Assembly (NCBI GenBank): GCA_964420435.1
Contig: CAYQTC010000007.1
Coordinates: forward strand, 70,018-134,017
Length of the DNA stretch: 64,000 bases
Reading direction: 5' to 3'
Source: an uncultured Geobacter sp.
GTDB taxonomy: Bacteria > Desulfobacterota > Desulfuromonadia > Geobacterales > Pseudopelobacteraceae
The notes under the pieces are model-generated. The model saw only the letters and a list, made by a program, of their open reading frames with translations, was not told the origin of the DNA and did not search any database. Shown in pieces: positions 41,248 to 59,109 of this stretch. The first letter of the stretch is position 1; every line of letters starts with the position of its first letter. The position numbers and the translations under genes were made by a program.

Positions 41248-42508
41248 TCCTGCGAATTTTATTGAGTATCATTTCTGTAAGTCTCAGCTTTTCACGGGCT
41301 GCACTTATTTCCGAGCGGGCCGGTTCATTTTTGAAGCGCTCAAGCGCTTTTTTCAAAATTGAATCCGCTTCACCGTAATATCCGGATTTGTGTCGCCAAC
41401 GGGCAAGAGCAATCGGATACTGCGCCGTATCAGGATCCAGGCTGATTGCCTTTAAGAGTGAGGCTTCAGCTTGTGCGGATCTGCCTTCCCTGTCATCTTT
41501 TCTGGCTTTCTGGAATTGCATCAGGGCAATTGCACCGCGCACATCACGACGATCCGGCTCGCTTCCGAGTCTGTTTTCAGTTTGTTCAAGAAATGCAATC
41601 GCCTCGTCATGCTGTCCGCTTCTTGCATATGCCGACATGATTGCAGCTATTGTTTCCCTGTTTTTACCGTTGATTGCAAGCGCTTTTCTGAAATGCTCAA
41701 GTGCAGAAGAATACTCTTCCCGTCCCATAGCCGAACGTCCAAGATGAAGATGCGACTTTATCAGATAATCGTTGAAAATCATTTTTACAGCTTCATCTTT
41801 AATTCCGGGAAAACGTTCCGCATAAAAGCTTACAAGATCGGCAAATCGTCCCAGACGCATATAACAGTTTGCCAGACCGGTCAGATAAGGTGCCAGCTTG
41901 GAGGGATTCTGAGAATAAGCTATATCGGCCAGGGGCAGGGATTTTTCGTAACTTTGCACAGCTTCACTTAACGCCCCAGACCGCATAAATGAAATTGCTG
42001 TGGAACGGGCCAGTTGTGCATCATATTGGGCTGACATTTTTTGAAAAACAGACAGTGCTTCTTCGTCCTGTTGCAACTGCCTCAATGTAAGTCTGGCGAG
42101 ATCAAAATTGCAGTCGTCCTCTGAGGCATCAATATGCCTGTCGTGCAGCTCTCCGGCAAGCGCGACTCCGTCAATGGAGAGCTTCATGGAATGGCCTTCG
42201 GCAAGCTTGGGATCCGAATAGGGGTAGCGTACAGAAAGCCGGTCCAGAGAAGAACCGGACAACCTGCCGACGGTTACACTTTCGCCTCCCACCAGTCCAG
42301 TAATAGTTTTAAGTTCATCATCGACACTCAAAACCAAAAAAACCTTGTGCTGACCACGAACGCCGTCACAAGCCTTTCCGGAGGTTGTAACAACAGCAAG
42401 GTTTCCGACATAAAGCCGCAGATCAGCCCTGACAGTCGCGGGCAGTAGTAAACCAGCAATAATTATTGCAGAAAGAATGAAGGAATATGGTCGCATGAAA
42501 TCGCTCAC
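41237..42508 (-). CDS. Secreted tetratricopeptide-repeat protein
   Basis: Signal-peptide-like N-terminus and multiple TPR-like A/Y/L repeats in the C-terminal 250 aa. Confidence 0.7.
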   Translation of the reverse strand: MSDFMRPYSFILSAIIIAGLLLPATVRADLRLYVGNLAVVTTSGKACDGVRGQHKVFLVLSVDDELKTITGLVGGESVTVGRLSGSSLDRLSVRYPYSDPKLAEGHSMKLSIDGVALAGELHDRHIDASEDDCNFDLARLTLRQLQQDEEALSVFQKMSAQYDAQLARSTAISFMRSGALSEAVQSYEKSLPLADIAYSQNPSKLAPYLTGLANCYMRLGRFADLVSFYAERFPGIKDEAVKMIFNDYLIKSHLHLGRSAMGREEYSSALEHFRKALAINGKNRETIAAIMSAYARSGQHDEAIAFLEQTENRLGSEPDRRDVRGAIALMQFQKARKDDREGRSAQAEASLLKAISLDPDTAQYPIALARWRHKSGYYGEADSILKKALERFKNEPARSEISAAREKLRLTEMILNKIRRNGG

Positions 42509-42527
42509 AAAGTGGTATTTTCAAAAT

Positions 42528-42815
42528 TTAACGCCGGCTGACACCGGACGAACCTGTTTTTTTAACATTCTTTTTGGGGGAATCTTTGACAACGATCAAC
42601 CGGTCACCCAGCATGGCTCCATTCAGAAGATCAACCGCTTCTCTGGCCTCCTCTTCGGTCGACATCCTGACATACCCGCACCCCCTGAAATCACCTGAAC
42701 CGGAATCAACGACAAGATGGACGGACGAAACCGTTCCCGCCACGGAGAACAGCTTTCGCACTTCATCCTCCGTGACTGTACCGGAGATTTGGCCGACATA
42801 TATTTCCACTCCCAT
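42528..42815 (-). CDS. RNA-binding protein with RRM domain
   Basis: RNP2-like IYVGQI and RNP1-like RGCGYVRM. About 95 aa from the ATG at 42815. Confidence 0.8.
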   Translation of the reverse strand: MGVEIYVGQISGTVTEDEVRKLFSVAGTVSSVHLVVDSGSGDFRGCGYVRMSTEEEAREAVDLLNGAMLGDRLIVVKDSPKKNVKKTGSSGVSRR

Positions 42816-42837
42816 CAAGAACTTTCCTTTCAATCAG

Positions 42838-43614
42838 TTATTTGAATATTTCCGCAAAAAATGTCTTCATCGCTTCCCAAGAACGCCGGTCCGCTTTCTC
42901 GTTATAGGCAGCCCCCTTGCTGTTGTCTGTGCCGGCAGCCTTATTGGTGAAACTGTGAACGGCATTGCTGTAGCTGATAAACTGCCAGTCAACTCCGCCA
43001 TTCCTCATTTCGTCCTGAAAAGCGGCCACCTCATCAGCTTTTACAAAAGGGTCGTCAGCGCCGTGCAGCACCAGCACTTTAGCTGTGATGTTTTTGGCAT
43101 CCAGTGGTGTGGGAGTGGACAGTCCGCCATGGAAACTTACGACCCCCTTGACATCAGCAGCGTCACGAGCAAGCTCCAGAACGGTTGTGCCGCCGAAACA
43201 ATATCCGATGGCGGCAATACGCTGCGGATCGGCAAGCTTTTGTTTTTTAAGTTCTTCCAGCCCGGCTCTGACCCTGGCCCGCATCAGGGGGCGATCATTT
43301 TTGTAGACGCCGGCTGTTTTAGCGGCTTCCGGCTGGGCGGAGGGACGGATACCCTTGCCGTAAATATCTGCGGCAAAGGCAACGTAACCAAGCTTGGCCA
43401 GCATTTCGGCCCGTTGTTTCATATGTTCGTTGATACCGGTCCACTCATGCACGATCAGGACTCCGGGGCGTTTGGCGCTTTTGGCGTCATCCCAGGCCAT
43501 GTACCCTTCAAGGATCGTATCGCCTTGTTTGTATTCGACAACTTTTGTTTTTACGGAAGCTTCAGCATTTATGGAAAATAACAGCAGCGCCAGTATTATC
43601 AGTATGCTTTTCAT
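42838..43614 (-). CDS. Dienelactone hydrolase family protein (secreted)
   Basis: Signal peptide MKSILIILALLLFSINAEA. Nucleophile elbow GYCFGG and a C-terminal HSF motif. Confidence 0.8.
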   Translation of the reverse strand: MKSILIILALLLFSINAEASVKTKVVEYKQGDTILEGYMAWDDAKSAKRPGVLIVHEWTGINEHMKQRAEMLAKLGYVAFAADIYGKGIRPSAQPEAAKTAGVYKNDRPLMRARVRAGLEELKKQKLADPQRIAAIGYCFGGTTVLELARDAADVKGVVSFHGGLSTPTPLDAKNITAKVLVLHGADDPFVKADEVAAFQDEMRNGGVDWQFISYSNAVHSFTNKAAGTDNSKGAAYNEKADRRSWEAMKTFFAEIFK

Positions 43615-43753
43615 GACAGACCCCCTTTTAAAACTGACCAACCAAATGGTCTTAACAGCTTAGTACATTGAAATTATAAACTATTTTTGTGCGACATATA
43701 AGCTATTTATCGACGGTTTATGTAACCCGTGAAAAAGGTCTTTTGCAATGGTG

Positions 43754-44497
43754 TCATTCTTCCAGCAATTCAACGGAATCATCCTTGAGCGGAACCCCGG
43801 AAATGCCGCGCCGAATGGCTTCCCCGGTAAGATAGAGCAGTTTTGCGGCGGCAGCCTCGTAGCCCATACCATCCGGCGGGCGGATGTTGGAAATGCAGTT
43901 CCGTTGTGCATCGCAGTTGCCAGGCTGCGGCGCATAGGTCAGGTACATACCGAGACTGTCGGCTGAACTGAGGCCGGGACGCTCGCCGACGATGATCACC
44001 GCTACCCGCGCGGCAAGAAGGCTGCCGATCTCGTCCGATAATGCGACGCGACCATTGGCGACCAGGCAAACCGGGGCAATGCTGATCTGACTCGTCCGAT
44101 AGCCTTTCAATATTGACTGCAGCAGCGGAATACCATGGCGTTCGACAGCAGTGGATGACAAACCGTTAGTAACAATCAGCGCCACATCCGCCTGACCGGA
44201 CTCGGAATTTCTCAGACGGGATCCTGATTCTTCGGTGAGAACCCGGCCCAGGTCGGGGCGACGGAGATACTCGCTGCGGCTGCCGACGGGCGAATCCAGG
44301 ACCAGAACATTTTCACCAAGATTCCTCACTTGCGCGGCAAAGGCGTTCATATTCCAGGAAAAATGCACCGCATCCCGCGCCCGGGCATGGGCCAGCTGTA
44401 AATCCAGCAGTACCCTGGTCGGAACGGCGTGCCCGGACCGTCCAAGGGCGATACGCGCCTGGGTAAACCTGCGCAGGGCAACCCACGAATCGGTCAT
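43754..44497 (-). CDS. eutC: Ethanolamine ammonia-lyase small subunit
   Basis: N-terminus ...LRRFTQARIALGRSG and GERPGLSSADSLG. The ATG at 44497 overlaps the eutB stop (ATGA). Confidence 0.9.
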   Translation of the reverse strand: MTDSWVALRRFTQARIALGRSGHAVPTRVLLDLQLAHARARDAVHFSWNMNAFAAQVRNLGENVLVLDSPVGSRSEYLRRPDLGRVLTEESGSRLRNSESGQADVALIVTNGLSSTAVERHGIPLLQSILKGYRTSQISIAPVCLVANGRVALSDEIGSLLAARVAVIIVGERPGLSSADSLGMYLTYAPQPGNCDAQRNCISNIRPPDGMGYEAAAAKLLYLTGEAIRRGISGVPLKDDSVELLEE

Positions 44498-45891
44498 ACA
44501 GATCCCCCCGTCAGCTCGTTGACGGCTTTTATCAGTTTTGGAGATAATGTACCCCGGCACAAGCCGTTGCGCCCGTCGAAGATCCCCATGCGTTTCAGCC
44601 AATCCTCAAATTCAGGCGCGGGCCGCAGCCCCAGAACACGGCGGAGATAAAGTGCGTCGTGGAACGAACTGCTCTGATAGGCCAGCATGACGTCGTCGGA
44701 TCCGGGAACGCCCATGATGTAACTGCAGCCGGCCACGCCCAGCAGGGTCATCAGGTTGTCCATATCGTTCTGGTCGGCCTCGGCGTGATTGGTGTAGCAG
44801 ACGTCGCAGCCCATGGGCAGGCCCAGCAGTTTGCCGCAGAAATGGTCCTCCAGTCCGGCACGGATAATCTGTTTGCCATCATACAGATATTCCGGCCCGA
44901 TGAAACCGACCACGGTATTGACCAGCAGCGGCGAAAAAGCCCGGGCAACGGCATAAGCTCGAGCCTCGCAGGTCTGGGCATCGATGCCGTGATTTGCATT
45001 GGCCGACAGTGCGCTCCCCTGCCCGGTTTCAAAGTACATCAGGTTATCGCCAAGGGTTCCGCGCCCCAGGGCAAGCGCCGTTTCGCGGGCTTCTGCCAGC
45101 AGGGCCAGGTTTATTCCAAAGCTTTTATTGGCCGCTTCGGTCCCGGCGATGGACTGGAACACCAAATCCACCGGAGCGCCGCGACGCATCAGTTCCAGTG
45201 TGGTGGTAACATGGGACAGCACACTGGATTGGGTCGGGATTTCATGGCGCTGGATGATGTCGTCCAGCAGGTGCAGCAGCTGTTCCACGTTCTTCGGGCT
45301 GTCCGTGGCAGGATTAATGCCGATGACCGCATCGCCGTTGCCGTACAGCAATCCGTCCAGCACGCTGGCGGCAATGCCGCGGGGATCGTCGGTGGGATGG
45401 TTGGGCTGCAGCCGCGTGGAAAGACAGCCCGGAAGTCCGATGGTATTGCGGAAGCGGGTGGTCACCTTACAGCGCCCGGCCACCGAGATCAAGTCCTGGT
45501 TGCGCATGATCTTGGAAACCGCCGCGGCCATTTCCGGAGTAATTCCCATTCGAATCGAGGCGATTTCTTCGTCGGAAGTGAAGTCGCTCAACAGCCATTC
45601 GCGAAATTCTCCGACACTCAAAGACGAGATCAGGGTGAAGGCGGCCCGGTCATGGGATTCTACAATCAGACGGCTGACTTCGTCTTCCTCCGGCGGAATC
45701 AAGGGTTCCGCGAGAAACGTCGTCAATGGCAGATCGGCCAGCAGCCATTGGGCAACGGCCCGCTCTTCCTCCGAGGCAGCGGCAATCCCGGCCAGTTCGT
45801 CCGCCGACCGCAGCGGCGAAGCCTTGGCCAACAGGGCTTTAAGATCCGCAAAGCCGTAGGATCTGCCTTTAATGTTCTGGGTGTATTTCAT
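44494..45891 (-). CDS. eutB: Ethanolamine ammonia-lyase large subunit
   Basis: EutB-type sequence throughout (YFETGQGS, MGCDVCYTNH). The ATG at 45891 is preferred over the TTG at 45900. Confidence 0.93.
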   Translation of the reverse strand: MKYTQNIKGRSYGFADLKALLAKASPLRSADELAGIAAASEEERAVAQWLLADLPLTTFLAEPLIPPEEDEVSRLIVESHDRAAFTLISSLSVGEFREWLLSDFTSDEEIASIRMGITPEMAAAVSKIMRNQDLISVAGRCKVTTRFRNTIGLPGCLSTRLQPNHPTDDPRGIAASVLDGLLYGNGDAVIGINPATDSPKNVEQLLHLLDDIIQRHEIPTQSSVLSHVTTTLELMRRGAPVDLVFQSIAGTEAANKSFGINLALLAEARETALALGRGTLGDNLMYFETGQGSALSANANHGIDAQTCEARAYAVARAFSPLLVNTVVGFIGPEYLYDGKQIIRAGLEDHFCGKLLGLPMGCDVCYTNHAEADQNDMDNLMTLLGVAGCSYIMGVPGSDDVMLAYQSSSFHDALYLRRVLGLRPAPEFEDWLKRMGIFDGRNGLCRGTLSPKLIKAVNELTGGSV

Positions 45892-45984
45892 GCCGATCAA
45901 GTTCCTGGAGTGTCAAAAGGATGAATAGAGATGATTATCATTTCTACCGGATGGACTTACTTGCAAATTTCTGCTCGGGTTGAA

Positions 45985-46248
45985 TCAAACACTGCCCAGC
46001 TTCTTTTCGATCCTTTCGATAACCTCGAAAACGGTCCCTTCCATGTCATCCCCATAGACGGTAAAATACAGATATTGACCGGTGTGGTCTGACCAGTCCA
46101 GGTTCTCGACCTGAAGTGGAGAAAGCAGCGATTCCATTTTCTCATAAGAGATGAATGGGTCTCCGTCAGGCCACTTTCTGTCAAGCCTTGCCTGCTGGGC
46201 ATCCGTCAGGCGTATCCTGTATGTTATTGAATAAACTTCAGCTTTCAT
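45985..46248 (-). CDS. Orphan hypothetical protein (87 aa)
   Basis: ORF track only; AT-rich context. No family recognised. Confidence 0.35.
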   Translation of the reverse strand: MKAEVYSITYRIRLTDAQQARLDRKWPDGDPFISYEKMESLLSPLQVENLDWSDHTGQYLYFTVYGDDMEGTVFEVIERIEKKLGSV

Positions 46249-46364
46249 AGCATACCTAACCGCCTATTTATCGATTGTTTTAATAAATAAATCACATGAC
46301 AACGGTAAAAAACACAAAAAAACAGGTCAATGTCAGTCGGCTGTGGTGGGTGAGGTGTTGCCTC

Positions 46365-46556
46365 CTAGCACACTTCATCACTGCTATTAATTTCATCTCC
46401 AAGCGTCAGTGTTTCCATGGTGTGTGTTATCTTTCGAATCTCTGACCTGGAGTAACCTTCTGCGACTAATGCCTTTATAAACATATTTGCCACTGCTGAA
46501 GGTTTGCAATGCCTGCTTAAGGCTTCTCTTAAAGTCTGAATGGCTTTCTCTTCCAC
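46365..46556 (-). CDS. Orphan hypothetical protein (63 aa)
   Basis: ORF track only. Starts 14 nt after the PilZ gene stop. No family recognised. Confidence 0.3.
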   Translation of the reverse strand: MEEKAIQTLREALSRHCKPSAVANMFIKALVAEGYSRSEIRKITHTMETLTLGDEINSSDEVC

Positions 46557-46569
46557 CTTGTCCCCCTTT

Positions 46570-46911
46570 TTAAATGTTAAAGCTGACTCCTATGTTTTCT
46601 GAATCAAACCTAACTATTTTGACAGGTCGTTTTATTGGGAATGAGGACGATTTATCAGTAAACATCATGTCACATGAATCACCAATGTGCAGGTGATTTT
46701 CGCCGCTCACCTTAACTAATGCCCCGCCCTTGGATATATTGCCCAATAACCCCTCGTAGGTATCCCCATCTCGACACATCAAGATGCAGTAAGTGTAACA
46801 ATTGATTCTTGTGTGCCTTCTGTTTTCCAAGGTGCCCATAATATTTCCCTCTCTCAAGCACGCTAATATAAGATTCTCAAAAACTTTATCAGACAATGAA
46901 ATATACCTCAT
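46570..46911 (-). CDS. Stand-alone PilZ domain protein (c-di-GMP receptor)
   Basis: RRHTR (RxxxR) and NISKGG (NxSxxG) motifs at the canonical spacing; 113 aa. Confidence 0.65.
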   Translation of the reverse strand: MRYISLSDKVFENLILACLREGNIMGTLENRRHTRINCYTYCILMCRDGDTYEGLLGNISKGGALVKVSGENHLHIGDSCDMMFTDKSSSFPIKRPVKIVRFDSENIGVSFNI

Positions 46912-47238
46912 ATCGAAGGAAGTTCAACTCTCAGCCTTGAGCTTCTAGAAACCAATATTAAAATCCATATAAAATAGATTGTGAGGTATAAGGTATTGCG
47001 ACTGCTCAAGTCTTGAGTATTCTGTTGAGCGATCATTGCGTTTCTCAGGTTTGGAAAAGTTACTGGACAACTATGGAGAGCGTTAAGAAGGAAAACTTAA
47101 CAAGTAAGGCGTTCCTTCTTTTAACAAGTCAGAACTCCTTAAGCTTGTGTTTGGATAAGTTGTTGAGCGGCCTTGGGGAAAAGCGCGTGGAATCGCCAAG
47201 CAGATTGATACTGTTTGTCAAATCTGTCACTGTGAGTA

Positions 47239-47271
47239 TAAAAAAAGAGGTCAGCATTTCCGCTGACCTCT
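47239..47271 (-). terminator. Rho-independent terminator of tRNA-Ala
   Basis: 10-bp stem AGAGGTCAGC/GCTGACCTCT (47246-47271), followed on the minus strand by TTTTTTT. It begins 12 nt past the tRNA 3' end. Confidence 0.75.
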
Positions 47272-47282
47272 TGAGTTATTTT

Positions 47283-47358
47283 TGGTGGAGGTTAACGGGA
47301 TCGAACCGATGACCTCGTCGCTGCCAGCGACGCGCTCTCCCAGCTGAGCTAAACCCCC
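47283..47358 (-). tRNA. tRNA-Ala (anticodon GGC)
   Basis: The reverse complement folds as a cloverleaf: GGGGGTT acceptor with the G3:U70 alanine identity pair, anticodon loop CU-GGC-AG, T-loop TTCGATC and an encoded CCA. There is one U50-U64 mismatch in the T-stem. Confidence 0.92.
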
Positions 47359-47591: not shown

Positions 47592-47599
47592 AATATTCA

Positions 47600-47630
47600 A
47601 AGGCCGCGTCGAAATGACGCGGCCTTTTTT
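47600..47630 (+). terminator. Rho-independent terminator of tRNA-His (also lies just downstream of the convergent jetD)
   Basis: 9-bp stem GGCCGCGTC/GACGCGGCC (47602-47624) followed by TTTTTT. Confidence 0.8.
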
Positions 47631-47647
47631 CGTAACAACCCAACATA

Positions 47648-48820
47648 TCAGAACTCGGCCAGCGCCGATTCCAGCCAGCCGAAACCGATCCTCTCCTGCT
47701 CAAGCCGCAGATTCCTGCGAATGCGGTTATCCCGCAGATCATCGTAGAGTGCCCTTTCCTCCCGGTTAAGCCTGTGCAGGTCGTGCAGCGCCTGCTTCTC
47801 TTCCACACCCCATTGTGATTCGAACGCCAGCAGAGTGCCCCGATCCATCAATAACGATTCCACCTGCTCGAAGCGGCTACGGAGCTGATCCAGAATCGCG
47901 AAGCCATGGGTGTCAATATCGCCCCAATAATGAATGCGGCAACTTGCAAGCCATGCGGCCCCACTCAACATCTCGAAGCCGTATCCGGCTCCGAAGATCA
48001 CCAGGCTGTCCTTTAGCTGCGGAAAGGCCAGGAAGTTGATCTCGTTCTCGGTGATGAAAACCCGCGAGACTTTCGGCTCAAGTCGGGCAAAGCTCTCGGC
48101 GTCCAGGGTAATGTCCTGAGGGGAGACGCCCGGCAGAACGTCACGCTCGGGATCCAACATTCGGAAGCGGATGCGAACCGGCTTGTCGCGAAACCCGTAG
48201 CGGCTTGCAAAGCGGCTTACTCCCGCGGCCGAGGAATCGATCGCCTCGGACGGCAGAACGATGTCCAGCAATTCGGACAGCACCCCGCGCTGGGCTTCGA
48301 TGAATTTGGTATGTACCCCTGGAATATCCACCTGCCGCAGATACACGCCGGGGCGCGGATGTTTCTGAAGCCAGGAAACGATTTCCAGCAGCCGGCTCCA
48401 TTCGTCAAAAAGCTCCAACGCACGCAGTGGCCGTTTGGCCAGCCAGTCCAGCAATTTCGGCTGCCGCCTGAGCGTTATCCCGATCAAATCTGTGAAGCGG
48501 GCGGCGTCCCGCTGCTTGCCGAGCAGCGCCAAGGCATCCTGGGCAGAATCGATCCACACCTCCTGGGGCACGGCATTTTCGCCGAACTGGCGGTGCCTGA
48601 ACTCCCGCATCTCCACCCGGCAGTGAGACATCGCCCGAAGTTCAATGATCCAGGCTCGTACCTCGTCAAAGCGGTCGGCCATCTCGGCCGAGGTAGGCAC
48701 CTTGAGCAGCAACCGCTTCGGGAACAGCGACTCGCCGGTGACAAGGGCGGACAGTATTTCGCCCTTATCCCACAGCTTTTGCAGCTGGGCCCGCAGATCT
48801 ACCGGCCTGGTACACTTCAT
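47648..48820 (-). CDS. jetD: Wadjet JetD-like protein (DUF3322 N-terminal domain plus DUF2220/Toprim-type nuclease domain)
   Basis: 390 aa. The C-terminal domain has a Toprim-like acidic glutamate in [14 protein letters not shown] and a DxD motif in [17 protein letters not shown]. The ATG overlaps the jetC stop (ATGA). Confidence 0.85.
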
Positions 48821-51800
48821 CCGGCCATCCTGGCCTTCTCGGCGTGATACTCTTCAATCGTCAGATTTCGCAGCTTGGAGGCCCGCCCTTCCTCGTTGTG
48901 GACAAAACCCACGCTGGAGACGAAAGGCTCGATGATGTGGATCTTCTGCAGAGGCGTGACGATCAGCAGCTGCAGATTGAGCTGGGCAAACAGCCGCAGA
49001 CCGTACTGCGCTGATTCGTCCGAACCACGCCCGAAGGCCTCGTCGATCACCACAAAACGGAATGTTCGCGAACGGACCGCCCCCCATTCCAGCCCGAACT
49101 GATAAGCCAGACTGGCCGCCAGAATAGTGTAGGCCAGCTTCTCCTTTTGACCGCCCGACTTGCCGCCCGAATCGGAATAATGCTCATGCTCGCTGTCGTC
49201 CTCGCGCCAGCGCTCGCTGGCGGCGAACACGAACCAGTTGCGCACATCGGTGACCTTGGCGGCCCAGCGCCGATCCTGTTCGGATAGCCCCTCCCGGCCG
49301 CGAAAGCGCTCGATGATGCGTCTGACCTGCAGGAACTTGGCCTCGGAATACTGGTTGTCATCCGATCCGGTCAAGGCACCTTCGGTACAGGCGCGCAACT
49401 CGGTCTGGAAATCGCGGATGTCGGCATCCGGTGTCGGCTGCGCCTCCAGCACGATGTAGCGCCCGGGGTTGTAGTCGATCTGGGTCAGCGACTCGTTGAT
49501 GCGGGTGATCCGTTCCTTGATCGTTTCCCGCTCGCGCGCCAGCTGCGACTGGAAGTTGGCCACCTCGCGAATGGTGTTCTCGTTCAACAGCTCCTTGAAA
49601 CGCAATTCGAAGCGCGGCAGATCGTCGGCCTGCAGGGAATCGAGCATGTTTCGGTATTCGAAACCGGCTTCGATGCCGGCATCAACCTCGGCGGTCTCCA
49701 GCCTGAACTCTTCCTTGTAGGCCGACATGGCCTGGATGATCCTGTCACGCAGGCGCTTGAGCTTATGATCCTCGTTATCGATCCTGGCCTGCAGCCAGTC
49801 ACGCATGTCGCGCTCGCGGTTGTCACAGGATTCGACCGTCAGTTGATGCTCTCCCAGGGCCTCGCTCCGCATGACAGCCAGTCTGTCGAAGCAGGCCGAG
49901 TGAATGGAGTAGGCCGGATCAAGCAGCACCGCCTGCGTCTGCTGACGCAAGGCTTCGGCATCACTCCTCTTCTGCTCGGCCTTGGAACGCTTGTCCCTGT
50001 GCTCATCCAGTTGTCCCTCTGTGGTTTTCAATGCGACAACCACCTCGTTCAGCCGTTCGGCCAACTGTTTCAACACATCGGAGGCCGATTCCAGTCTCTG
50101 TTTCTCGTCAGAAAGCTGGGCCACCTCCACGGTCAGCGACTGCCAGTCCAGCTCGCTGAAATCGCTGTACTCGTCCAGCTTTGACAGGGCTGTGATATGT
50201 TCCCTGAAGGTATTCTGCTCGGCCAGAATCCTGGAAATCAGGCTGCTGAGTTCGCCCAGACGGCTCTCCAGCTTCCTGGCCTTGACTTCCAGCGCGGTGA
50301 TCTTCTCGGCATTGGTCCATCCCAAAACAAAGCGGCTGCGGTCATCCAGCCGGTGACGATCATCCTTCTCGTGCCGCTCGCCGGGCGCCTTGATCTGTCC
50401 GGCGCGGGTGATGGCACGGATCTCGCGACGGAACTGCTCCTGTGTTGCGCAGCAGGCCACATCGAAACGGTGAGCCAATTCCCGTTCCAGCCAATCGTAA
50501 AAAGGGGTGTCAGGTTTGATGGCCAGCTTGAGCACCAGGGAATCCCTATGCAGGACGGGCAGATCACCACGAGAGCCCTGACGAACCCTGAAATAGACCA
50601 GACGTCCCCGCAGCTGCGTCCTGTCAACCCACTCCGCCACCTTGGCGTAACTCTCATCCGGTACCAGCAGTGACAAGCCGAAGTTGCGTAGGAGCCGTTC
50701 GACGCCACCCTCCCAATCGCGCTGATCGTCACGCACCTGCAGAAGTTCGCCGGCAAAAGGCATATCCGCCTCCGGCAGTCCCAGAGCCTTGCACAAGGCG
50801 GTGCGCATGGCCACCTGTTCGGCGGGAATGTTGCTGCGGCGGGCCTTCAGGCTGATGATTTCCGTCGACAGTTCGTCATGTTCCTGTTTGCCCTGACGCA
50901 AACTGACCCCGTGCTCGGTCAGATCGTTCTGCAAGGAGGCCTCGCGCGACCGAGCCGCTTCGGCCAAGTCGATAAAGTGCTGTCGCTGGGCACGAAATCC
51001 GGACTCATCTTCGGAGGGTCGCTCTCCGACCACCCGTACGAGCTCGGCATAACGCTGGGCCTTGCGCTCGCGCGTCTGTTGTTCCTGTACCTTCTTGCGG
51101 ATCTCGACCGCCAGTCGTTCCAGTCGGTCGCCGCCGTTATCGGCAATACTGCGCTTGAGTTCGTCCTGCTCGGCCCGCTGCGCGTCACGCAGTTTTTCAA
51201 GACGCCTGACGTGCGCGTCCTGCCGCTCCCACTCCTCCATCAGTCCCGCGATACGCTTGTCCAGCAGGCCGACTTTCAGCCCAGCGTAGCAGGATTTGAG
51301 CGCTTCGCGGCAGGCTCGAAGCTCTTCCACCTGATCAACGAGGAGCGAATGGCGGTCGCAGTCGCTGACCAGCGGCACAAGCAGTTCCACCTGCCGCTTG
51401 GCCTTCAGTACGGCCTCGTGCGCCCGGTTCAGGTCATCAAAATGGCTGATCAGGGCCGTGATACGAGGCGCCACGTCAAAAGGCTCCAGCATGTGGCTGC
51501 GTACAAAGTCGGTCAGATTGCCAACCGATTTTAACGACACGGTCTGATGGAACAGCTCCAGGGCCTGTTCATTCTCGATACCGAAGCGGCGACGGAACCA
51601 GGCTCCGTAGGGTGGAAAGCTGTCGAACAGCTCGGCACCCTGTCCCCGCAGTCGTTTTCGAAGCTGAGCGATGTCAGTGCCGAAGCTGGCGAAATCCTTG
51701 GCAATCGACAGGGCCCGCTCGGACGCGACAAAGAAGCGGGCCGGCTGCGATACGGCATCCTTCATCCAGAAGACCTGTGCCAGGGTCACCGTCTGGAGAT

Positions 51801-52191
51801 AGCCGGCGTTATGAAAAACGCCCAGAATCACGGAATAGTTGTTGTGGTCACGCAGTGCGACCGGCTTGGCGGTACCGCTCACCTCATTGCGCTCGGACTT
51901 GTAATGCCCGAGCACATAGGAGCGCAGCGTTCGCTCCTTGCTGTCGGCGCCGGCGGCCTTGTTGTAGGCGATGCGCTGCGCCGGCACCAGCAGGGTCGTG
52001 ACCGCATCCACCAGTGTCGATTTGCCTGAGCCGATGTCGCCGGTCAGCAGGGAGTTCTGGCCACCGGGATTCAGAGTCCAGACACGGCCGTCAAAGGTGC
52101 CCCAGTTGAACAGTTCCAGACGCTGCAGCCGAAAACCGGAAAGCGCATCGTCAGCCACGAAATCCAGGCTCATGGCTTGTGAATCATTCAT
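48817..52191 (-). CDS. jetC: Wadjet JetC-like SMC/ABC-type coiled-coil ATPase
   Basis: N-terminal head with [14 protein letters not shown] and Walker [10 protein letters not shown]. About 700 aa of heptad-rich, E/R/L/Q-rich coiled coil. C-terminal head with signature-like SGGQKEKLA, Walker [11 protein letters not shown] and LIVTPL. Start candidates are GTG 52200, ATG 52191 (8-nt overlap with jetB) and ATG 52173. Confidence 0.9.
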
Positions 52192-52831
52192 CGGCGGCAC
52201 CTCCCGAGATCACGGCAAGCTGGGACTGATATGCCGCCAGGCGGGTATCGAAATCCGCCAGCCACTGGGCATCTACGAATGCCTTGAGAATCCTTCGCAC
52301 CTCGAATACCGCGGCCTGGCCACCGGAAGGCGCTGTACTTGTTTTCAAGCGGCGCAGGAAACCCAGATCAACGATCCGGTTTAGGTGGGTTTCGATCTGG
52401 TCGATCAGTTTGGCCTCGTTGCTGCTTTCGGGCAGAAAGACACGAACCAGCTCGACGATTTCGTCCCGGCTGAGGACCAGGCGCGTATCCCCGCCGCTGG
52501 CATCGAACTCGGCCAGTTTCTTGCGCAAAAGCGCCAGCAGCAGACTGACCGAAAACGACAGCGGACGCCGCGCTATCAGGCGCGGCAGTTTTGGCGCCGG
52601 GTCATCATCCGCCTCCGGGCGCGAGCGCAGAAAAGCATACCCTTCCGCTTCGTCCAGCACCAGTTCCAGACCCAACACGGCCACATAGTCGCGCACGCCG
52701 GACTGCAGTTTCAGCAATGCTCCCCACAGGCTCACATCACTCTCCTGATAGATCACCCCTTTCAGCAGGGGGATGACCAGGGCCGAAAGGTCAACTGTTA
52801 CCGGGGCGTTTTCTCGCTCTTGTTCCGTCAT
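52184..52831 (-). CDS. jetB: Wadjet JetB-like protein (DUF4194; MksE/KITE-like small subunit)
   Basis: 215 aa. [48 protein letters not shown] matches my recollection of the DUF4194 core. It starts 2 nt after the jetA stop. Confidence 0.85.
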
Positions 52832-52833
52832 CT

Positions 52834-54288
52834 CTACCTCACAAAAATAACGCGCGGCAAACGCGCCTGTTTTTCCTGTTCCAGACCGTTTGAACCGCTG
52901 CCCCGCCAGACAATGACATCGGTCGTATCTTCATCCACCACGCTCCTGAAAGCGTCGCCCGCCAGCTGCAGGTAGGCCACCAGTTCAGCCAGACCGTGCT
53001 GCAGCGGCTGTATTTCGCACAGCTCGGACAGGGTGATCTGCTGACGATCCTGCAATGTGTGGCGTATATGCCGCGCCAGCCGCATTTTATCGATCACTAC
53101 CTGCGAATACAGCACGGACGCATCCACGTCGGAATCGCCAGATTCCAGCGCGATATCGGCAAATACCGGTTTAATCGCCGGGGTATGCAGCGGACGTTCC
53201 ATCGGCAGCTCGATATCGGCGGCGGTGTCCGCAATCGTCATCACCTCACCCGCCGGCGGCGTTTCCCGGACTGCCAGCGCCTTGGCTTCGATGCCGTGCA
53301 GTATGTCCATGATGCGGCGGTTTTCCAGCCAGGCCTGATCATCCAGAAAACGGCGCAACTGCTGCGAGAGCAGCGCCACCGTGCGCTGAGTATGCTCGCC
53401 GGCCTCCAGCCAGTCGTAATGCACACGGCGTGTTCTGGCGTCCGGCTTGAGCTCGGCCACCACCGGCAGAGCCAGTACGCGCTCCAGCAAGGCAGACAAC
53501 TCATCCTGGCGGCGGCTCGACATCAAAAAATCCCAGAATGCGCGGAAGCTGCGCCCCTGGTCGGTATCGGCAATGGCATCGCGCTCGCCCATGATCTCTT
53601 CCAGCAGAGCTCCTTTGGCCCCCTCCCAAAGCGCGATGCGTTCGCGCACGCGCCGGTCCAGCCCGCGAAAGTTATGCTCCACCTCGCGGAAATCGCTCAA
53701 CAGCTCACGCGCCATGGAGATAAACTGCTGGAAGCGCTCCTTCAGCGCCGTATCATCCAGCATCGGTATATCGCCAGACAGAACCCGGGCAATTTCGGCG
53801 TCTATATCATCGCGCCGCTTGTGAAGTTCCGCCAGGCGGGTCTGGGGGTCGGTCTCGCTCCCCTCGCTCATCTGCTTGAGTAGCTCAAACAGTGTCAGCA
53901 GGCGCGATTCGGTCCCGACGAAACTGCGCTCGGTGAGCGTCCCCAGCCAGGCAATCGCCTTCTCGGTAGCCGGTACCAGGTCGAAATGCGGTTCATCCGA
54001 ACCCTGGCGGTAGAACTTGCGCAGCCAGCCGCGCTCGGCGGCTGCCCAGTCATTCAGGTACTCAAGGGCGGACTTGGGAAAGGCGCCCGCCCCCTGCCGC
54101 TCGCGCAGGGCAAACAGCTCGTCTTCCAGCGCTTCCGCCAGATCCGCCTGCGCCATTACCCGCACATTTGGCACAATGAAAACGCGGTGCAGAAAACTAG
54201 CCACCAGCGGAGCGTGGTCAGAACGCAAAAAGCGCCAGGCCGGGTGGCTTTGGCGCAACAGATCAAGGGTGGCGTAGTCGAAGCTCAA
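52834..54288 (-). CDS. jetA: Wadjet JetA-like protein (DUF3375; MksF/kleisin-like subunit)
   Basis: 484 aa. The N-terminus LLRQSHPAWRFLRSDHAPLVASFLHRVF is typical of DUF3375. TTG start at 54288 with GGAG upstream. First gene of the operon. Confidence 0.85.
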   Translation of the reverse strand: MSFDYATLDLLRQSHPAWRFLRSDHAPLVASFLHRVFIVPNVRVMAQADLAEALEDELFALRERQGAGAFPKSALEYLNDWAAAERGWLRKFYRQGSDEPHFDLVPATEKAIAWLGTLTERSFVGTESRLLTLFELLKQMSEGSETDPQTRLAELHKRRDDIDAEIARVLSGDIPMLDDTALKERFQQFISMARELLSDFREVEHNFRGLDRRVRERIALWEGAKGALLEEIMGERDAIADTDQGRSFRAFWDFLMSSRRQDELSALLERVLALPVVAELKPDARTRRVHYDWLEAGEHTQRTVALLSQQLRRFLDDQAWLENRRIMDILHGIEAKALAVRETPPAGEVMTIADTAADIELPMERPLHTPAIKPVFADIALESGDSDVDASVLYSQVVIDKMRLARHIRHTLQDRQQITLSELCEIQPLQHGLAELVAYLQLAGDAFRSVVDEDTTDVIVWRGSGSNGLEQEKQARLPRVIFVR

Positions 54289-54418
54289 TTTTTACTCCAC
54301 AATCAGGCATGTACTTTAACATCAACCGGAAATATCCGATACAAACAGAAACATATTGGCACAACCTGACACACCATGACGCATGCATTACGGCTATCAA
54401 AAAAGCGGCATATTCCCC

Positions 54419-55804
54419 CTACCCCACCTCGGCATACTCACGCACGCGAAACTCGGCGCCCAATGATTCCGCCAGCCTGCGGCAGGCATCGACATCCGTT
54501 CCCGGCACTGTCACGGCGCTGGCCACCACCTGCGGAATGTGTTTTTTGGCCTCGCGGATAAAGTTGCAGACACCGTCAAAACCTTTCGCGCCAAACGGGG
54601 TATTGCAGAGATGATCATACGCGGCCGCATCAGAGGCATTCAGGCTGACCGATATGCTGTCAACCAGTCCCGCCAGTTCCGGCAGGATATTGCGGCCATG
54701 GACAAGATTGGCCTGACCGTCGGTGTTGATGCGAATGCAGCAGCCGCGCTGTTTAAGCTCACTCGCCACCTGTTTTACCAGCTCAAGCCGGATCAACGGT
54801 TCGCCGTAGCCGCAGAAAACAACTTCATCATACCCTTCTGTCGTGCCGACCGCCGCCATAACTTCATCGAATGAGGGTTCTCCGTCCAGCAGCAGATTGT
54901 GCCCCTTTACAGTGAAATCGTCGAATTTAGCGCAGAAGCTGCAGCGGTTTGAACAGCGGTTAGTTATGTTGAGATACAGAGAGTTGCGGATGCGGTATGC
55001 AATCTTGGTGGATTGGTCCCACAGGCGGATGCCAAACAGGTCGCGCACATTTTTGGTAGTGATACGCGCGACATCATCCAGGGTCAAGCCCTTCAGTTCG
55101 GCGATTTTTTCTGCTGCCATCCGCACATAGGCCGGCTCATTGCGCTTGCCGCGATACGGGACCGGAGTCAGATAAGGGCAGTCGGTCTCAACCATCATGC
55201 GGTCGATACTGACGGCTCGCACCACATCCTGCAGAGCCTGATTGGACGGATAGGTTATCGTTCCGGGAATCGAGATATAGAATCCCATCCCGATCGCCCG
55301 GGCAGCCATTTCCGCATCCCCGGAAAAACAGTGCAGAACGCCGCGCCTGACAGTCTCTTTACACAGAATGTCCATTACCTTGTCATGGGCATCGCGATCG
55401 TGTATGATGACCGGCATTTCCAACTCTCCCGCCATCTGCAGAAACCGGCGAAATACGGTTTCCTGGGCATCACGCGGAGAACGGTCACGATAAAAATCCA
55501 GACCGATTTCACCGATCGCAACTATCTTGGAGCTGGACTGCGCCAGGTTCCGGATGACGTCATAGCACTTTTCGGTCACGCGACCGGCATCGTGCGGATG
55601 TATGCCTACCGAAGCGTACAGTTGCGGATATTTTTCAGCCAACTCGACCGATTCCCGGCTGGATTCGAGGTCTGTGCCCACCACCAGCATGGCCCCCACG
55701 CCGGCATCCACAGCGCGTGCAAGCATTTCTTCAAAATCGCCGGCATAATCGCGATAATAGATATGGGCGTGAGAATCGATCAGTACCGGTTTGATCTCGT
55801 TCAT
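54419..55804 (-). CDS. Fusion protein: TatD-family metal-dependent hydrolase (N-terminal) plus radical SAM domain (C-terminal)
   Basis: N-terminus LIDSHAHIYYRDY...HDRDAH...ETDCPYL (TatD). C-terminal about 190 aa has LNITNRCSNRCSFC (CX3CX2C) and GYGEP. Confidence 0.85.
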   Translation of the reverse strand: MNEIKPVLIDSHAHIYYRDYAGDFEEMLARAVDAGVGAMLVVGTDLESSRESVELAEKYPQLYASVGIHPHDAGRVTEKCYDVIRNLAQSSSKIVAIGEIGLDFYRDRSPRDAQETVFRRFLQMAGELEMPVIIHDRDAHDKVMDILCKETVRRGVLHCFSGDAEMAARAIGMGFYISIPGTITYPSNQALQDVVRAVSIDRMMVETDCPYLTPVPYRGKRNEPAYVRMAAEKIAELKGLTLDDVARITTKNVRDLFGIRLWDQSTKIAYRIRNSLYLNITNRCSNRCSFCAKFDDFTVKGHNLLLDGEPSFDEVMAAVGTTEGYDEVVFCGYGEPLIRLELVKQVASELKQRGCCIRINTDGQANLVHGRNILPELAGLVDSISVSLNASDAAAYDHLCNTPFGAKGFDGVCNFIREAKKHIPQVVASAVTVPGTDVDACRRLAESLGAEFRVREYAEVG

Positions 55805-55807
55805 TGG

Positions 55808-56605
55808 TTAACCTTTCAGCTCTTCTTTGAGACCTTCAACGACCGCCTTGACTTCGGCAATCATATCGGCCGCCTGTGTTGATGTTTCATATTTCAGATA
55901 TTTTTCAAAGAAAGCGATCGCATCGGCGGTACGATCCTGATCCATGCAGATTCCTCCCAGGGTCAGGTAGGCCATACCGTAAGCCGGATCCAGGCGTACC
56001 GCCTCCAGACATTCTTCCTCGGCTTCTTCCAGTTCTTCCAGATCATAGTACAGTTCTCCAAGATTGAAGTGAGCTACCGGATCCTCAGGGTCTATTTCTA
56101 CACCTTTTTCAAAGGCCTTGATCGCTCCCTCCACATCCCCCTTGCCGTAAAGAGCATCACCCAGCGCATTCCAGGCGAATACATTATCGGACTCAAGCTC
56201 TAGAGCCTGCTCAAAGGCCCGGATGGCTTCTTCACTGCGATCCTGGCTGTTGTGCACTAAACCTATGCTGACCAGTGCATCGGCATCTTCAGGATCGATC
56301 TCCAGCACCTTTTTATAGCAGACAAGGGCGTCCTTGTGCTTTCCGGCTTCAAACAGCATATCACCCAGCGTAGTCAAAGCCTCTGCGTCTTCAGGGGCCA
56401 GCTTGAGACCTTCGCGGTAGCGCTCGATAGCTTCGTCCAGCTGACCGTTTTCAGCCAGCGCATCCCCGAGATAGAACCAGCTTTCAGGCTCGCTTTTGTG
56501 GTCGGCCCAATACCCTTCCAATACCGAGATGGCCTCGGTAAGCTTGCCCGAATCGAGCAGATCAAGACCGTTTTTAACAGTCTCATTAATAATTGTATCA
56601 TTCAT
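55808..56605 (-). CDS. Tetratricopeptide-repeat protein
   Basis: Seven or so 34-aa repeats with the pattern ...W..LG.A....G....AI..YE.AL...P. Confidence 0.8.
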   Translation of the reverse strand: MNDTIINETVKNGLDLLDSGKLTEAISVLEGYWADHKSEPESWFYLGDALAENGQLDEAIERYREGLKLAPEDAEALTTLGDMLFEAGKHKDALVCYKKVLEIDPEDADALVSIGLVHNSQDRSEEAIRAFEQALELESDNVFAWNALGDALYGKGDVEGAIKAFEKGVEIDPEDPVAHFNLGELYYDLEELEEAEEECLEAVRLDPAYGMAYLTLGGICMDQDRTADAIAFFEKYLKYETSTQAADMIAEVKAVVEGLKEELKG

Positions 56606-56763
56606 AGTGGTTCCCCTGTTGTTGATTGTGAATTAATTGTCAGCACTTAAATAAAGATAGCAGACACGCCCTTACATTTCCAGCGTATATCAGCCATCAG
56701 TATTTTACATTCCATTAAAAACCCTCTATACTCGCCGAAAATATAGTGCAACGGGGCATTTAA

Positions 56764-59109
56764 ATGAAAGAAACCCAGCAATCTCTCAGCCTGCGTACTT
56801 TAGAAGATATAAGCACAATTATTTTACATTCACATGATCTTCAGGAAACACTCGACAATATAGTCGCTTTGGTCGCCAAGCGTATGTCCAGCGACGTCTG
56901 TTCAATCTATCTGCTGGAAGCTGACGGTGAAACCCTTGTGCTGAAGGCGACCAAAGGCTTATCAAAGGCCTCCGTAAACCGGGTCTCGATGAAAGTCCAC
57001 GAAGGCCTCACCGGCCTGGCGGTCGAAAATCGTGACATGGTCATGACCGATAACGCCCCGTCACATCCACGTTTCAAGTATTTCAAAGAGGCCAGGGAAG
57101 AAAAGTTCCTCTCGTTTCTCGGTCTGCCGCTGTTTGAACATAAGGCGCCGATCGGCGCGATTGTCATCCAGACCCGTGAGGCGCGCAGCTTCAGTAATGA
57201 CGAGATCAGCGCCCTGCGCACGATCACCTTCCAGATCGGCAGCATTATCCACAATGCCCGCCTGCTTGACTCCATCCAGAACAAGGAACAGGAGCGTGCC
57301 TGGTTTGAGCAGGAACTCGCCAAGGTCAAAAACGGTTCACCAAGCGAGTCAACTCCGTCAAAAAAGACCGGCAAACGGGCCGCAACTTCAATAATGCTTG
57401 GCGGTACGGCTGTGTCGGGTGGTTTCAGTCGCGGAAAAGTGTACATCCTCGACCGTTTTAACGACAAAGTGATCAAACTGGCAAGAGTCGGCAGTAAATC
57501 TGAGGAGCTGGAAAAGTTCAATATTGCTCTTGAGAAGACCAAGATCCAGACCATTTACATGGAAAAACGGGTCAGCGAAACACTTTCTGCCGATGATGCC
57601 GCCATTTTCCATACCCACCTGATGATTTTGGAAGATCGCGGTTTTTCTACCAAAGTAATCGATCTGATTGATCAGGGCCTGGGTGCCAGCCGTGCCGTTC
57701 ACGATGTAGTTCAGCACTACATTCACGCATTTTCCGAAATGGCCGACCCATATCTCCGTGAGCGCTCAGCTGACATGGATGACATCGGACGACGCATAAT
57801 AGATGTCATTGTCGGAAACAACTCCATCGACATAATGCTGAAGGAAAAAAGAGTCATCGTTGCCGAAGAGATATTTCCTTCCAACCTGGCCATGCTTGAT
57901 CATGACAAAATTCTGGGTATCGTTACCGAGAAGGGCAATGCCTACTCCCACGCCGCCATCATGGCAAAGTCTCTTGGGATTCCTGCTGTACTAGGCGTCG
58001 AGGGATTGATGTCGGCCGCCAACGTCAAGGATGAAATAATTGTGGACGGCACATCGGGGCACATTTTCTTAAATCCCGACGCCGCTGTAAAAAAAGAGTA
58101 TGTACGCCTGGAGCAGGACCATGCCGGGCGCATGAAGGAGCTGGAGGGTCTGCGCGATCTTCCGGCTGTTACAACCGATGGAATTTCGTTCACTTTGAGC
58201 GCCAATATCGGTCTTATTTCAGACGTTAAAGTTGCCAACCTGCACGGCGCAGAAGGGGTCGGACTTTATCGAACCGAATTCCCCTATATGGCCCGCTCCG
58301 CCTTCCCCGACCGCGAAGAACAGGCCAACATTTACCGCAAAATCCTGGAAGGATTTCCGGGACAGGCAGTCAACATCCGCACACTCGACATCGGCGGCGA
58401 CAAAGGCCTGCCCTATTTTTCATACCCCGCCGAAGACAATCCCTTTCTTGGTTGGCGCTCAATCCGCGTATCACTCGAACGCCAGGATATTTTCAAAGAA
58501 CAGCTGGCCGGAATTCTGCTGGCTTCACATGCCGGTAACCCTACAGTCATGTTCCCGCTTATCAGCAGTCTGGACGAAATCCGCCAGATCAGGGAAATAC
58601 TGACACTGGTCAGAAACGAACTTTTGCGCGAAGGGCACAATGTCCCCGGTTACATCCCGTTCGGAATCATGGTCGAGATACCTGCGGCTGTCCAGATTAT
58701 CGAATATCTGGTGCGGGAAGTGGATTATGTCAGCATCGGCACCAACGACCTGATCCAGTACACACTGGCAGTAGACCGCAACAATTCCCGTGTCCGGCAA
58801 TATTATGATCCGCACCACCCGGCCATACTGCATTCGATCAAACGCGTTGCTGATGCGGCCGCCAAGGCCGGCAAAAAGGCATCCGTCTGCGGAGAAATGG
58901 CGGCTGATCCGCTGAATGCGCTGCTGCTGGCCGGCATGGGCATCCGCGAATTCAGCCTTTCAGCCCCCAGCATTCCGGTCATTAAACAGGCCATACGCAA
59001 TCACAGCATCGAAACATGCCGCAAGCTGGCGCGCTCTGTTCTGGCCTGCCGCAGCAGTGCCGATATCCGCCGCTGTCTGACAGACGCACGCAAAAAGCTG
59101 TCCCTGTAA
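56764..59109 (+). CDS. ptsP: GAF-domain phosphoenolpyruvate-protein phosphotransferase (EI-Ntr)
   Basis: N-terminal GAF domain. Enzyme I motifs GNAYSHAAIMAKSLGIPAV (active-site His), GVGLYRTEF and SIGTNDLIQYTLAVDR. Confidence 0.92.
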   Translation: MKETQQSLSLRTLEDISTIILHSHDLQETLDNIVALVAKRMSSDVCSIYLLEADGETLVLKATKGLSKASVNRVSMKVHEGLTGLAVENRDMVMTDNAPSHPRFKYFKEAREEKFLSFLGLPLFEHKAPIGAIVIQTREARSFSNDEISALRTITFQIGSIIHNARLLDSIQNKEQERAWFEQELAKVKNGSPSESTPSKKTGKRAATSIMLGGTAVSGGFSRGKVYILDRFNDKVIKLARVGSKSEELEKFNIALEKTKIQTIYMEKRVSETLSADDAAIFHTHLMILEDRGFSTKVIDLIDQGLGASRAVHDVVQHYIHAFSEMADPYLRERSADMDDIGRRIIDVIVGNNSIDIMLKEKRVIVAEEIFPSNLAMLDHDKILGIVTEKGNAYSHAAIMAKSLGIPAVLGVEGLMSAANVKDEIIVDGTSGHIFLNPDAAVKKEYVRLEQDHAGRMKELEGLRDLPAVTTDGISFTLSANIGLISDVKVANLHGAEGVGLYRTEFPYMARSAFPDREEQANIYRKILEGFPGQAVNIRTLDIGGDKGLPYFSYPAEDNPFLGWRSIRVSLERQDIFKEQLAGILLASHAGNPTVMFPLISSLDEIRQIREILTLVRNELLREGHNVPGYIPFGIMVEIPAAVQIIEYLVREVDYVSIGTNDLIQYTLAVDRNNSRVRQYYDPHHPAILHSIKRVADAAAKAGKKASVCGEMAADPLNALLLAGMGIREFSLSAPSIPVIKQAIRNHSIETCRKLARSVLACRSSADIRRCLTDARKKLSL

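Follow-up and report, generated by a model that had tools for sequence, protein, structure and literature searches.

We analysed a 64,000-nucleotide (nt) stretch of DNA from an uncultured Geobacter sp., hereafter the window (contig CAYQTC010000007.1, positions 70,018 to 134,017), in which four consecutive genes, jetA, jetB, jetC and jetD, occupy window positions 47648-54288 on the minus strand. Together they very probably constitute an intact type I Wadjet defence operon (JetABCD, also called MksBEFG or EptABCD) located on the chromosome. The kind of system is already known: the operon represents, in canonical form, a family that has been well characterised, here in a host that has not been studied. 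The four genes, with product lengths in amino acids (aa), were as follows:

52834-54288, minus strand: jetA, 484 aa, TTG start with GGAG 6 nt upstream; kleisin (DUF3375)
52184-52831, minus strand: jetB, 215 aa; KITE/MukE-like protein (DUF4194/MksE) with a short N-terminal tail
48817-52191, minus strand: jetC, 1124 aa from the ATG at 52191, with GGAGG 8 nt upstream; SMC-family ABC ATPase
47648-48820, minus strand: jetD, 390 aa; nuclease with DUF3322 (arm-CAP) and Toprim (JetD_C) domains

An initial annotation, made from the letters of the window, had described four minus-strand genes of 484, 215, about 1124 and 390 aa with junctions of 2, 8 and 4 nt, and the open reading frame (ORF) calls bore this out: a 2-nt gap separates jetA from jetB, jetB and jetC overlap by 8 nt (counted from the ATG start), and jetC and jetD share a 4-nt ATGA overlap. 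The four genes are translationally coupled. The jetC ORF reaches back to a GTG at 52200 (48817-52200, 1127 aa); JetC residues are numbered here on this 1127-aa ORF, and numbers counted from the ATG are lower by 3. The ATPase motifs and the SGGQKEKLA, ITENE and GDIDTHG motifs quoted in the annotation were each located in the translations. Of 80 related loci, 67 had the order A-B-C-D; the others were mostly cut by contig ends, and a few carried jetA only.

Profile searches assigned every product to a type I Wadjet subunit. JetA matched Pfam DUF3375 (2.1e-156, profile positions 2-474 of 474) and PADLOC JetA1 (4.2e-226), and JetB matched DUF4194 (1.6e-45), MksE (1.3e-18) and PADLOC JetB1 (1.3e-95). 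For JetC the matches were AAA_29 (2.6e-24), SbcC_Walker_B (2.5e-24) and PADLOC JetC1 (E=0, 1684 bits, profile positions 3-1120 of 1123), and for JetD they were DUF3322 (1.2e-58), JetD_C (8.3e-57) and PADLOC JetD1 (1.5e-153). Profile E-values from 1e-45 down to 0 exclude a chance match. The PADLOC models of types II and III were marginal (JetC2 5.4e-9, JetD2 3e-5, JetD3 6.7e-5), and the NCBIfam search, in which no model matched any of the four Jet proteins, was taken to reflect that library and not the proteins. Thus the domains expected by the initial annotation (DUF3375, DUF4194, SMC-head domains, and DUF3322 plus DUF2220, the latter family now being named JetD_C) were all found, and its identification of a Wadjet/JetABCD system agrees with Pfam, with PADLOC JetA1, JetB1, JetC1 and JetD1 and with the solved chains (see below). 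Since Pfam, PADLOC, the solved chains and the catalytic residues agree, every sequence criterion identifies the operon as an intact type I Wadjet. Two other assignments were tried and rejected. For Lamassu (LmuABC), the JetC-LmuB match was weak (2.8e-7, in the coiled-coil region, no stretch being significant alone) and LmuA and LmuC were absent from the operon; the second, a sequence of enterobacteria or of a known plasmid, found no match when the operon was compared by megablast with E. coli genomes and a plasmid collection.

The SMC subunit JetC aligned with JetC of E. coli GF4-3 (8as8) over residues 22-1120 (1.2e-57) and with that of P. aeruginosa (8dk2, 1.6e-56). Its Walker A motif, GDIGSGKST, was found at 54 (K60), the signature SGGQKEKLA at 1015 (S1015) and the ten-residue Walker B motif at 1047 (D1053/E1054). 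About 700 aa of coiled coil had been proposed to separate the two heads; the spacing stood, but the intervening region is not all coiled coil, for the full-length alignment to 8as8 places a conserved hinge region in its centre, by homology to the solved JetC. Further along, the loop at residues 935-948 is nearly invariant, LRxCTEGx(L/I/V)TGSDD, and lies where E. coli JetC has the 'larynx' residue F919, a hydrophobic residue whose docking into the aCAP pocket of JetD has been validated by mutagenesis. A conserved aliphatic residue of this loop, L943, stands two residues upstream of G945.

JetD found its best solved match in C. glutamicum MksG (8b7f; 6e-23, 30% identity over 329 aligned residues), followed by E. 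coli JetD(E248A) (8q72; 4e-13, 27% identity, residues 6-388) and P. aeruginosa JetD (7til; 1e-11). The ITENE motif at 256 and the GDIDTHG motif at 300 contain the putative catalytic residues: E258 aligned with residue 248, the position replaced in the nuclease-dead E. coli JetD(E248A), and the DxD pair D301/D303 was conserved in all three alignments (MksG and the two JetD). These matches to three solved JetD/MksG structures, in which the catalytic residues line up, settle the predicted fold of JetD.

JetA aligned with the solved JetA chains at E-values from 8e-23 to 5e-19 (8dk1 8e-23, 8q72 3e-19), covering residues 12-453 in the alignment with JetA of E. coli GF4-3. Its C-terminus, 'LPRVIFVR' (window 52834-52860), was exact in 54 of 80 relatives and closely similar in most of the others; the jetA stop codon lies 2 nt ahead of the jetB start. 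JetB matched a solved JetB less strongly (8dk1_E, 3.6e-6), its N-terminus is ~35 aa shorter than those of the solved JetBs, and the ORF cannot be extended upstream. In the type I systems of E. coli and P. aeruginosa, an IFDR motif in the JetB N-terminus is said to contact the JetD aCAP domain (PMC10586767; 10.1101/2025.03.10.642339), a contact that the literature itself predicts or assigns tentatively. A peptide search of the JetA C-terminus against PDB sequences found no similarity to any solved Jet chain. The idea that this C-terminus substitutes for the absent JetB IFDR found no support in that search and was set aside as speculation.

The E. coli GF4-3 system (PDB 8AS8, 8BFN, 8Q72) has the same four subunits in the same order, its E248 is the counterpart of E258 here, and both systems share the DxD and ATPase motifs; it differs in the JetB N-terminus, which there carries IFDR and is ~35 aa longer, and in JetC F919, which aligns with a Gly here, a conserved Leu standing two residues away. 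The P. aeruginosa PA14 system (PDB 8DK1-3, 7TIL) presents the same type I architecture, with an IFDR-bearing JetB N-terminus that is absent here. The former was reportedly studied by Liu et al. 2022 and Roisne-Hamelin et al. 2023, and the structures of the latter are reportedly due to Deep et al. 2022. MksBEFG of C. glutamicum, compared here via the MksG structure (PDB 8B7F) only, belongs to an actinobacterial host and a different subclade; MksG has the same Toprim E and DxD, and JetD of the window is nearer to it than to the E. coli or P. aeruginosa JetD. That system is native to the chromosome and acts on plasmids (PMC10123090). Wadjet types II and III follow the same logic of an SMC sensor with a JetD nuclease, type II having a tandem KITE (10.1101/2025.03.10.642339) whereas JetB here is a single KITE of 215 aa. 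MukBEF and MksBEF are homologous in their SMC-kleisin-KITE core, JetB itself matching the Pfam MksE family; they act in chromosome organisation without a Toprim nuclease partner, whereas here an intact jetD is coupled to jetC. JetD also has in common with subunit A of topoisomerase VI and Spo11 the CAP+Toprim arrangement, according to the literature, and differs from topoisomerase VI in being a nuclease that depends on an SMC motor.

By homology, an anti-plasmid function is the likely role of the operon. On the model drawn from the E. coli GF4-3, P. aeruginosa PA14 and C. glutamicum systems (PMC10586767; 10.1101/2022.10.04.510915; 10.1101/2023.11.03.565488; PMC10889018; PMC10123090), the kleisin JetA, the KITE protein JetB and the SMC protein JetC would assemble into a JetA2B4C4 dimer of motor units that loads on DNA, and the JetABC motors would then extrude loops at the expense of ATP. 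On small DNA circles (below roughly 50-100 kb) extrusion would run to completion, so that the two motors meet; the remaining DNA would be bent, and a JetD dimer docked on the JetC heads would cut both strands regardless of sequence or supercoiling. Incoming plasmids would be destroyed in this way, and the chromosome and linear or very large replicons would be spared. The predicted proteins of the operon hold every sequence element that this mechanism of loop extrusion and cleavage needs.

The surroundings of the operon were compared with four syntenic genomes: L083 (GCA_003575185.1), L084 and L085 (Geobacter sp. GCA_009684515.1 and GCA_003575145.1) and L086 (a Logan assembly of SRR22388033). 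The features at and around the insertion site were as follows:

47634-54422, minus strand: inserted segment (leader plus jetABCD), ~6.8 kb, in place of a ~25 bp spacer of the empty site
54289-54418, minus strand: leader upstream of jetA, 130 bp, part of the insert and absent from the empty site of L083
54419-55804, minus strand: fusion of TatD DNase and radical SAM (TatD-rSAM), 461 aa, directly upstream of jetA
47599-47630, both strands: G+C-rich hairpin with flanking A- and T-runs, between the convergent tRNA-His gene and the jetD stop codon
47516-47591, plus strand: tRNA-His(gtg), found by ARAGORN and Rfam; a landmark by the insertion site, not part of the system
47283-47358, minus strand: tRNA-Ala(ggc), found by ARAGORN and Rfam

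L083 was collinear with the window on both sides and contained no Wadjet: L083:11382 corresponds to window 54423 and L083:11408 to window 47633, and only ~25 bp lie between the TatD-rSAM stop codon and the tRNA-His terminator hairpin. The cassette jetABCD was present at exactly the same site in L084, L085 and L086. L083 is 98.1-99.7% identical to L084 and L085 in both flanks and differs from them by the cassette and one insertion sequence (IS) element, and this cassette difference is a strain-level gain or loss. The whole cassette is missing from a strain whose flanks are 98-99.7% identical and is therefore dispensable. The accessory nature of the module had been proposed from its position; a clean presence or absence at one site among near-identical Geobacter assemblies is stronger support than the initial annotation could have had. 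The adjoining tRNA gene pair and the terminator-like hairpin that it had described were also confirmed, and L083, L084 and L085 have this tRNA pair flanking the site as well. The hairpin at 47599-47630 (dG -22.6 kcal/mol on the plus strand and -23.5 on the minus strand; z -6.2 and -4.8) is a candidate bidirectional terminator. It is also found in the empty site of L083 and is therefore host sequence, marking the right edge of the insertion.

Other Wadjet cassettes showed homology at the DNA level only within positions 47634-54291. Within the inserted segment there were no mobility genes and no integrase. A search for att-like direct or inverted repeats bounding the cassette gave only short matches at chance level, and the junctions showed no target-site duplication. 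Beyond the tRNA pair, a second variable segment (42428-46392) was absent from L083, and its place was taken by an IS with a DDE transposase in L084 and L085; in the window it holds a dienelactone-hydrolase-like gene (42838-43641, minus strand) and EutBC (43754-45900, minus strand). In view of this second variable segment, the interval from TatD-rSAM to TPR/UbiD behaves as an integration hotspot. The adjacent region between eutB and tRNA-Ala (45925-47280) is of low GC (~0.39-0.45) and largely non-coding, with a PilZ-domain ORF at 46570-46911 (minus strand); the segment 46393-46555 was conserved in L083, L084 and L085 as a called 60-aa ORF, and a strong hairpin (47245-47272) follows tRNA-Ala.

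The insert had a GC content of 60.3%, as against 51.3% for the rest of the window, and the GC at third codon positions (GC3) of the jet genes was 0.69-0.75. Compared with L084, the ratio of non-synonymous to synonymous divergence (dN/dS) of the jet genes was 0.07-0.16, and they are under purifying selection. Their synonymous divergence (dS) was 0.65-0.85 against L084, with 1.6-2.3 in the flanking genes, and 0.32-0.35 against L086, with 0.78-1.2 in the flanking genes. Since the dS of the cassette is about half that of the flanks, the cassette has a more recent common ancestor than the surrounding chromosome. Relatives at 75-85% identity were confirmed in at least 545 stretches, spread over several phyla, when one genome per species was scanned. 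Among the matches listed, JetA was 84-85% identical in Betaproteobacteria such as Sulfurimicrobium and Accumulibacter, in Acidiferrobacterales and in Nitrospiria, and merely 79-80% identical to that of Geobacter cassettes at other sites. From its composition and distribution the cassette appears to have been acquired horizontally. In protein-mode searches the clade proved rare on plasmids, with 37 of 72,556 records, the 12 among the matches listed all being megaplasmids of 0.48-2.1 Mb, and it was essentially absent from phage records. One distant JetA/DUF3375 homologue (25% identity, E 1e-27) was noted in a 54-kb unannotated 'Bacteriophage sp.' record from human faeces (MT835499.1:13414-14859). 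A related cassette also lies on a 5.3-Mb Methylocaldum replicon (L025, NZ_CP194902.1), which is titled 'plasmid unnamed' and is probably a mislabelled chromosome.

Several of the related cassettes were altered. The jetA/jetB junction looks like a recurrent insertion point: an IS200-type Y1 transposase lies between the two genes in L013 (12200-13075), a muramidase gene and an SH3-domain gene in L045 (12083-13908), and a 1181-aa SIR2-like protein (PF13289, 3.5e-19) is nested there in Candidatus Accumulibacter meliphilus (L007:2965-6510), possibly as a second defence gene lodged within the operon. In L005 (11452-13436) jetB was shortened to 97 aa. Three loci (L022, L026 and L036), two of them from Accumulibacter, had a jetA homologue of 79-82% identity and no jetB, jetC or jetD in the sequence present; contig truncation does not explain the jetA-only state of L022, since 10 kb of downstream sequence is present. 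The closest relative of the window cassette, that of L086 (92% nt identity), had jetC split into several ORFs (L086:6668-9759) by two internal deletions equivalent to window 50530-50767 and 49065-49890, and is either a decaying copy or an assembly artefact.

Upstream of jetA, the folding of the leader was no better than that of shuffled sequences (z -0.6). Between the TatD-rSAM gene and jetA, L086 carries a terminator hairpin that is missing from the window. Since no terminator intervenes, read-through from the co-directional TatD-rSAM gene into the operon is possible. The protein encoded by this gene, for which NCBI uses the name 'TatD family nuclease-associated radical SAM protein', shares 82-92% identity with proteins from Geobacter sp., Geobacteraceae or Oryzomonas, which places the host in the Geobacteraceae. 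It gave weak PADLOC matches to QatD and pVip, and its membership of the defence locus was rejected, for it is a conserved Geobacteraceae gene found with or without Wadjet. Two metagenome contigs, found in a search with the neighbouring TPR protein, were 100% identical to window 54139-57234, whereas exact-sequence look-ups with JetD and with the PtsP-like neighbour yielded no record.

Elsewhere the window encodes chromosomal housekeeping and metabolic functions: PyrG, KdsB, riboflavin genes, AckA, TruD, SerA and Lgt, as well as a P-type ATPase, UbiD, an ABC transporter, EutBC, a PtsP-like enzyme I, Alr and RACo. The scan of neighbours covered nearly all window ORFs of at least 200 aa; among those scanned there was no second SMC complex, no par, no scpAB and no other defence gene. 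The earlier remark that the operon has no ori, par or scpAB neighbours thus holds for every window ORF scanned.

Some of the results weigh against the type I Wadjet assignment or against the functions attached to it. The closest characterised homologues are distant (JetD is 27-30% identical to them), and activity, substrate size limit and expression are ascribed to the operon and its close clade by analogy. An IFDR-like motif ([ILVMF]F[DE][RK]) was absent from JetB and, in 77 relatives, from the N-terminal 80 aa; residue F919 of E. coli JetC aligned with G945, at a point where the alignment is uncertain. A sigma-70 consensus scan of the jetA leader found no promoter on the minus strand. The lower dS of the cassette could partly reflect a stronger GC3 codon bias together with a flank dS near saturation. 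Finally, the view covers the 64-kb window, so that a Smc-ScpAB complex elsewhere in the genome would be beyond sight, a point in favour of the condensin reading discussed below.

The short JetB, the lack of an IFDR-like motif in the 77 relatives and the non-conservation of F919, together with the nearly invariant 'LPRVIFVR' of JetA and a JetD nearer to C. glutamicum MksG, could be taken to mean that this is a Wadjet machine whose nuclease recruitment or target range is unlike the E. coli paradigm. JetD might then be tethered via the JetA C-terminus or the JetC 935-948 loop and not via the JetB N-terminal helix, or the main natural targets might be circular phage, integrative and conjugative element or phage-plasmid intermediates. 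We consider this unlikely: the IFDR contact is itself predicted or tentative in the literature, the JetA C-terminus is unlike any solved Jet chain in the peptide search, conserved termini are equally expected of a kleisin C-terminal winged-helix domain binding the SMC cap, and all the core domains are canonical. The IFDR motif is a subclade feature and does not define the family; likewise the peculiarities of JetB, of the F919 position and of the JetA C-terminus are subclade traits that leave Wadjet membership unaffected. A composite proposal, which we hold to be rather doubtful, is that the widespread clade with a short IFDR-less JetB, a nearly invariant JetA C-terminus and an invariant JetC loop with Leu in place of F919 may recruit or activate JetD by a different tether, and that its four genes alone, with no mobility genes of their own, may spread by recombining into a conserved tRNA-adjacent hotspot.

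An operon that is a canonical type I Wadjet by sequence might still be a relic that is decaying or silent and has lost its expression or activity. The 130-bp leader without a recognisable promoter would fit such a state, as would the decay or interruption of related cassettes (the jetC deletions of L086, the IS200-type insertion of L013 and the jetA-only loci L022, L026 and L036). In the window itself, the four ORFs are full length relative to the profiles, the catalytic motifs are intact, the dN/dS values are 0.07-0.16, ribosome-binding sites and coupled junctions are preserved, and read-through from the upstream gene is possible, all of which make a relic very unlikely. A housekeeping condensin of the MukBEF/MksBEF type, serving chromosome organisation or segregation, is the least credible reading of all, since the homology of JetABC to MukBEF/MksBEF (JetB-MksE 1.3e-18) and the chromosomal housekeeping neighbours, which would suit it, are met by a full-length JetD with intact catalytic residues coupled to jetC, by best matches of all four proteins to type I Wadjet models, and by a near-identical strain without the cassette, which its composition and distribution suggest was acquired horizontally.

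An intact type I Wadjet operon at this locus is of little consequence for defence biology in general, type I Wadjet being well characterised and recognised by Pfam and PADLOC with overwhelming scores. What is added here, namely the exact empty and occupied site, a cassette younger than its flanks and a clade with an IFDR-less JetB, is tidy and not surprising. In the literature searched, no paper mentioned both Wadjet and Geobacter. Geobacteraceae find use in bioelectrochemistry, and their transformation is often difficult. If active, the Wadjet operon would be a concrete barrier to small replicative plasmids in Geobacteraceae, for which the remedy would be deletion of the operon or the use of linear or integrative DNA. 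The locus is also a clean natural case in which strains more than 98% identical differ by the gain or loss of a bare defence cassette at a hotspot beside a tRNA gene, and the empty and occupied strains could serve as a natural isogenic-like pair for plasmid uptake.

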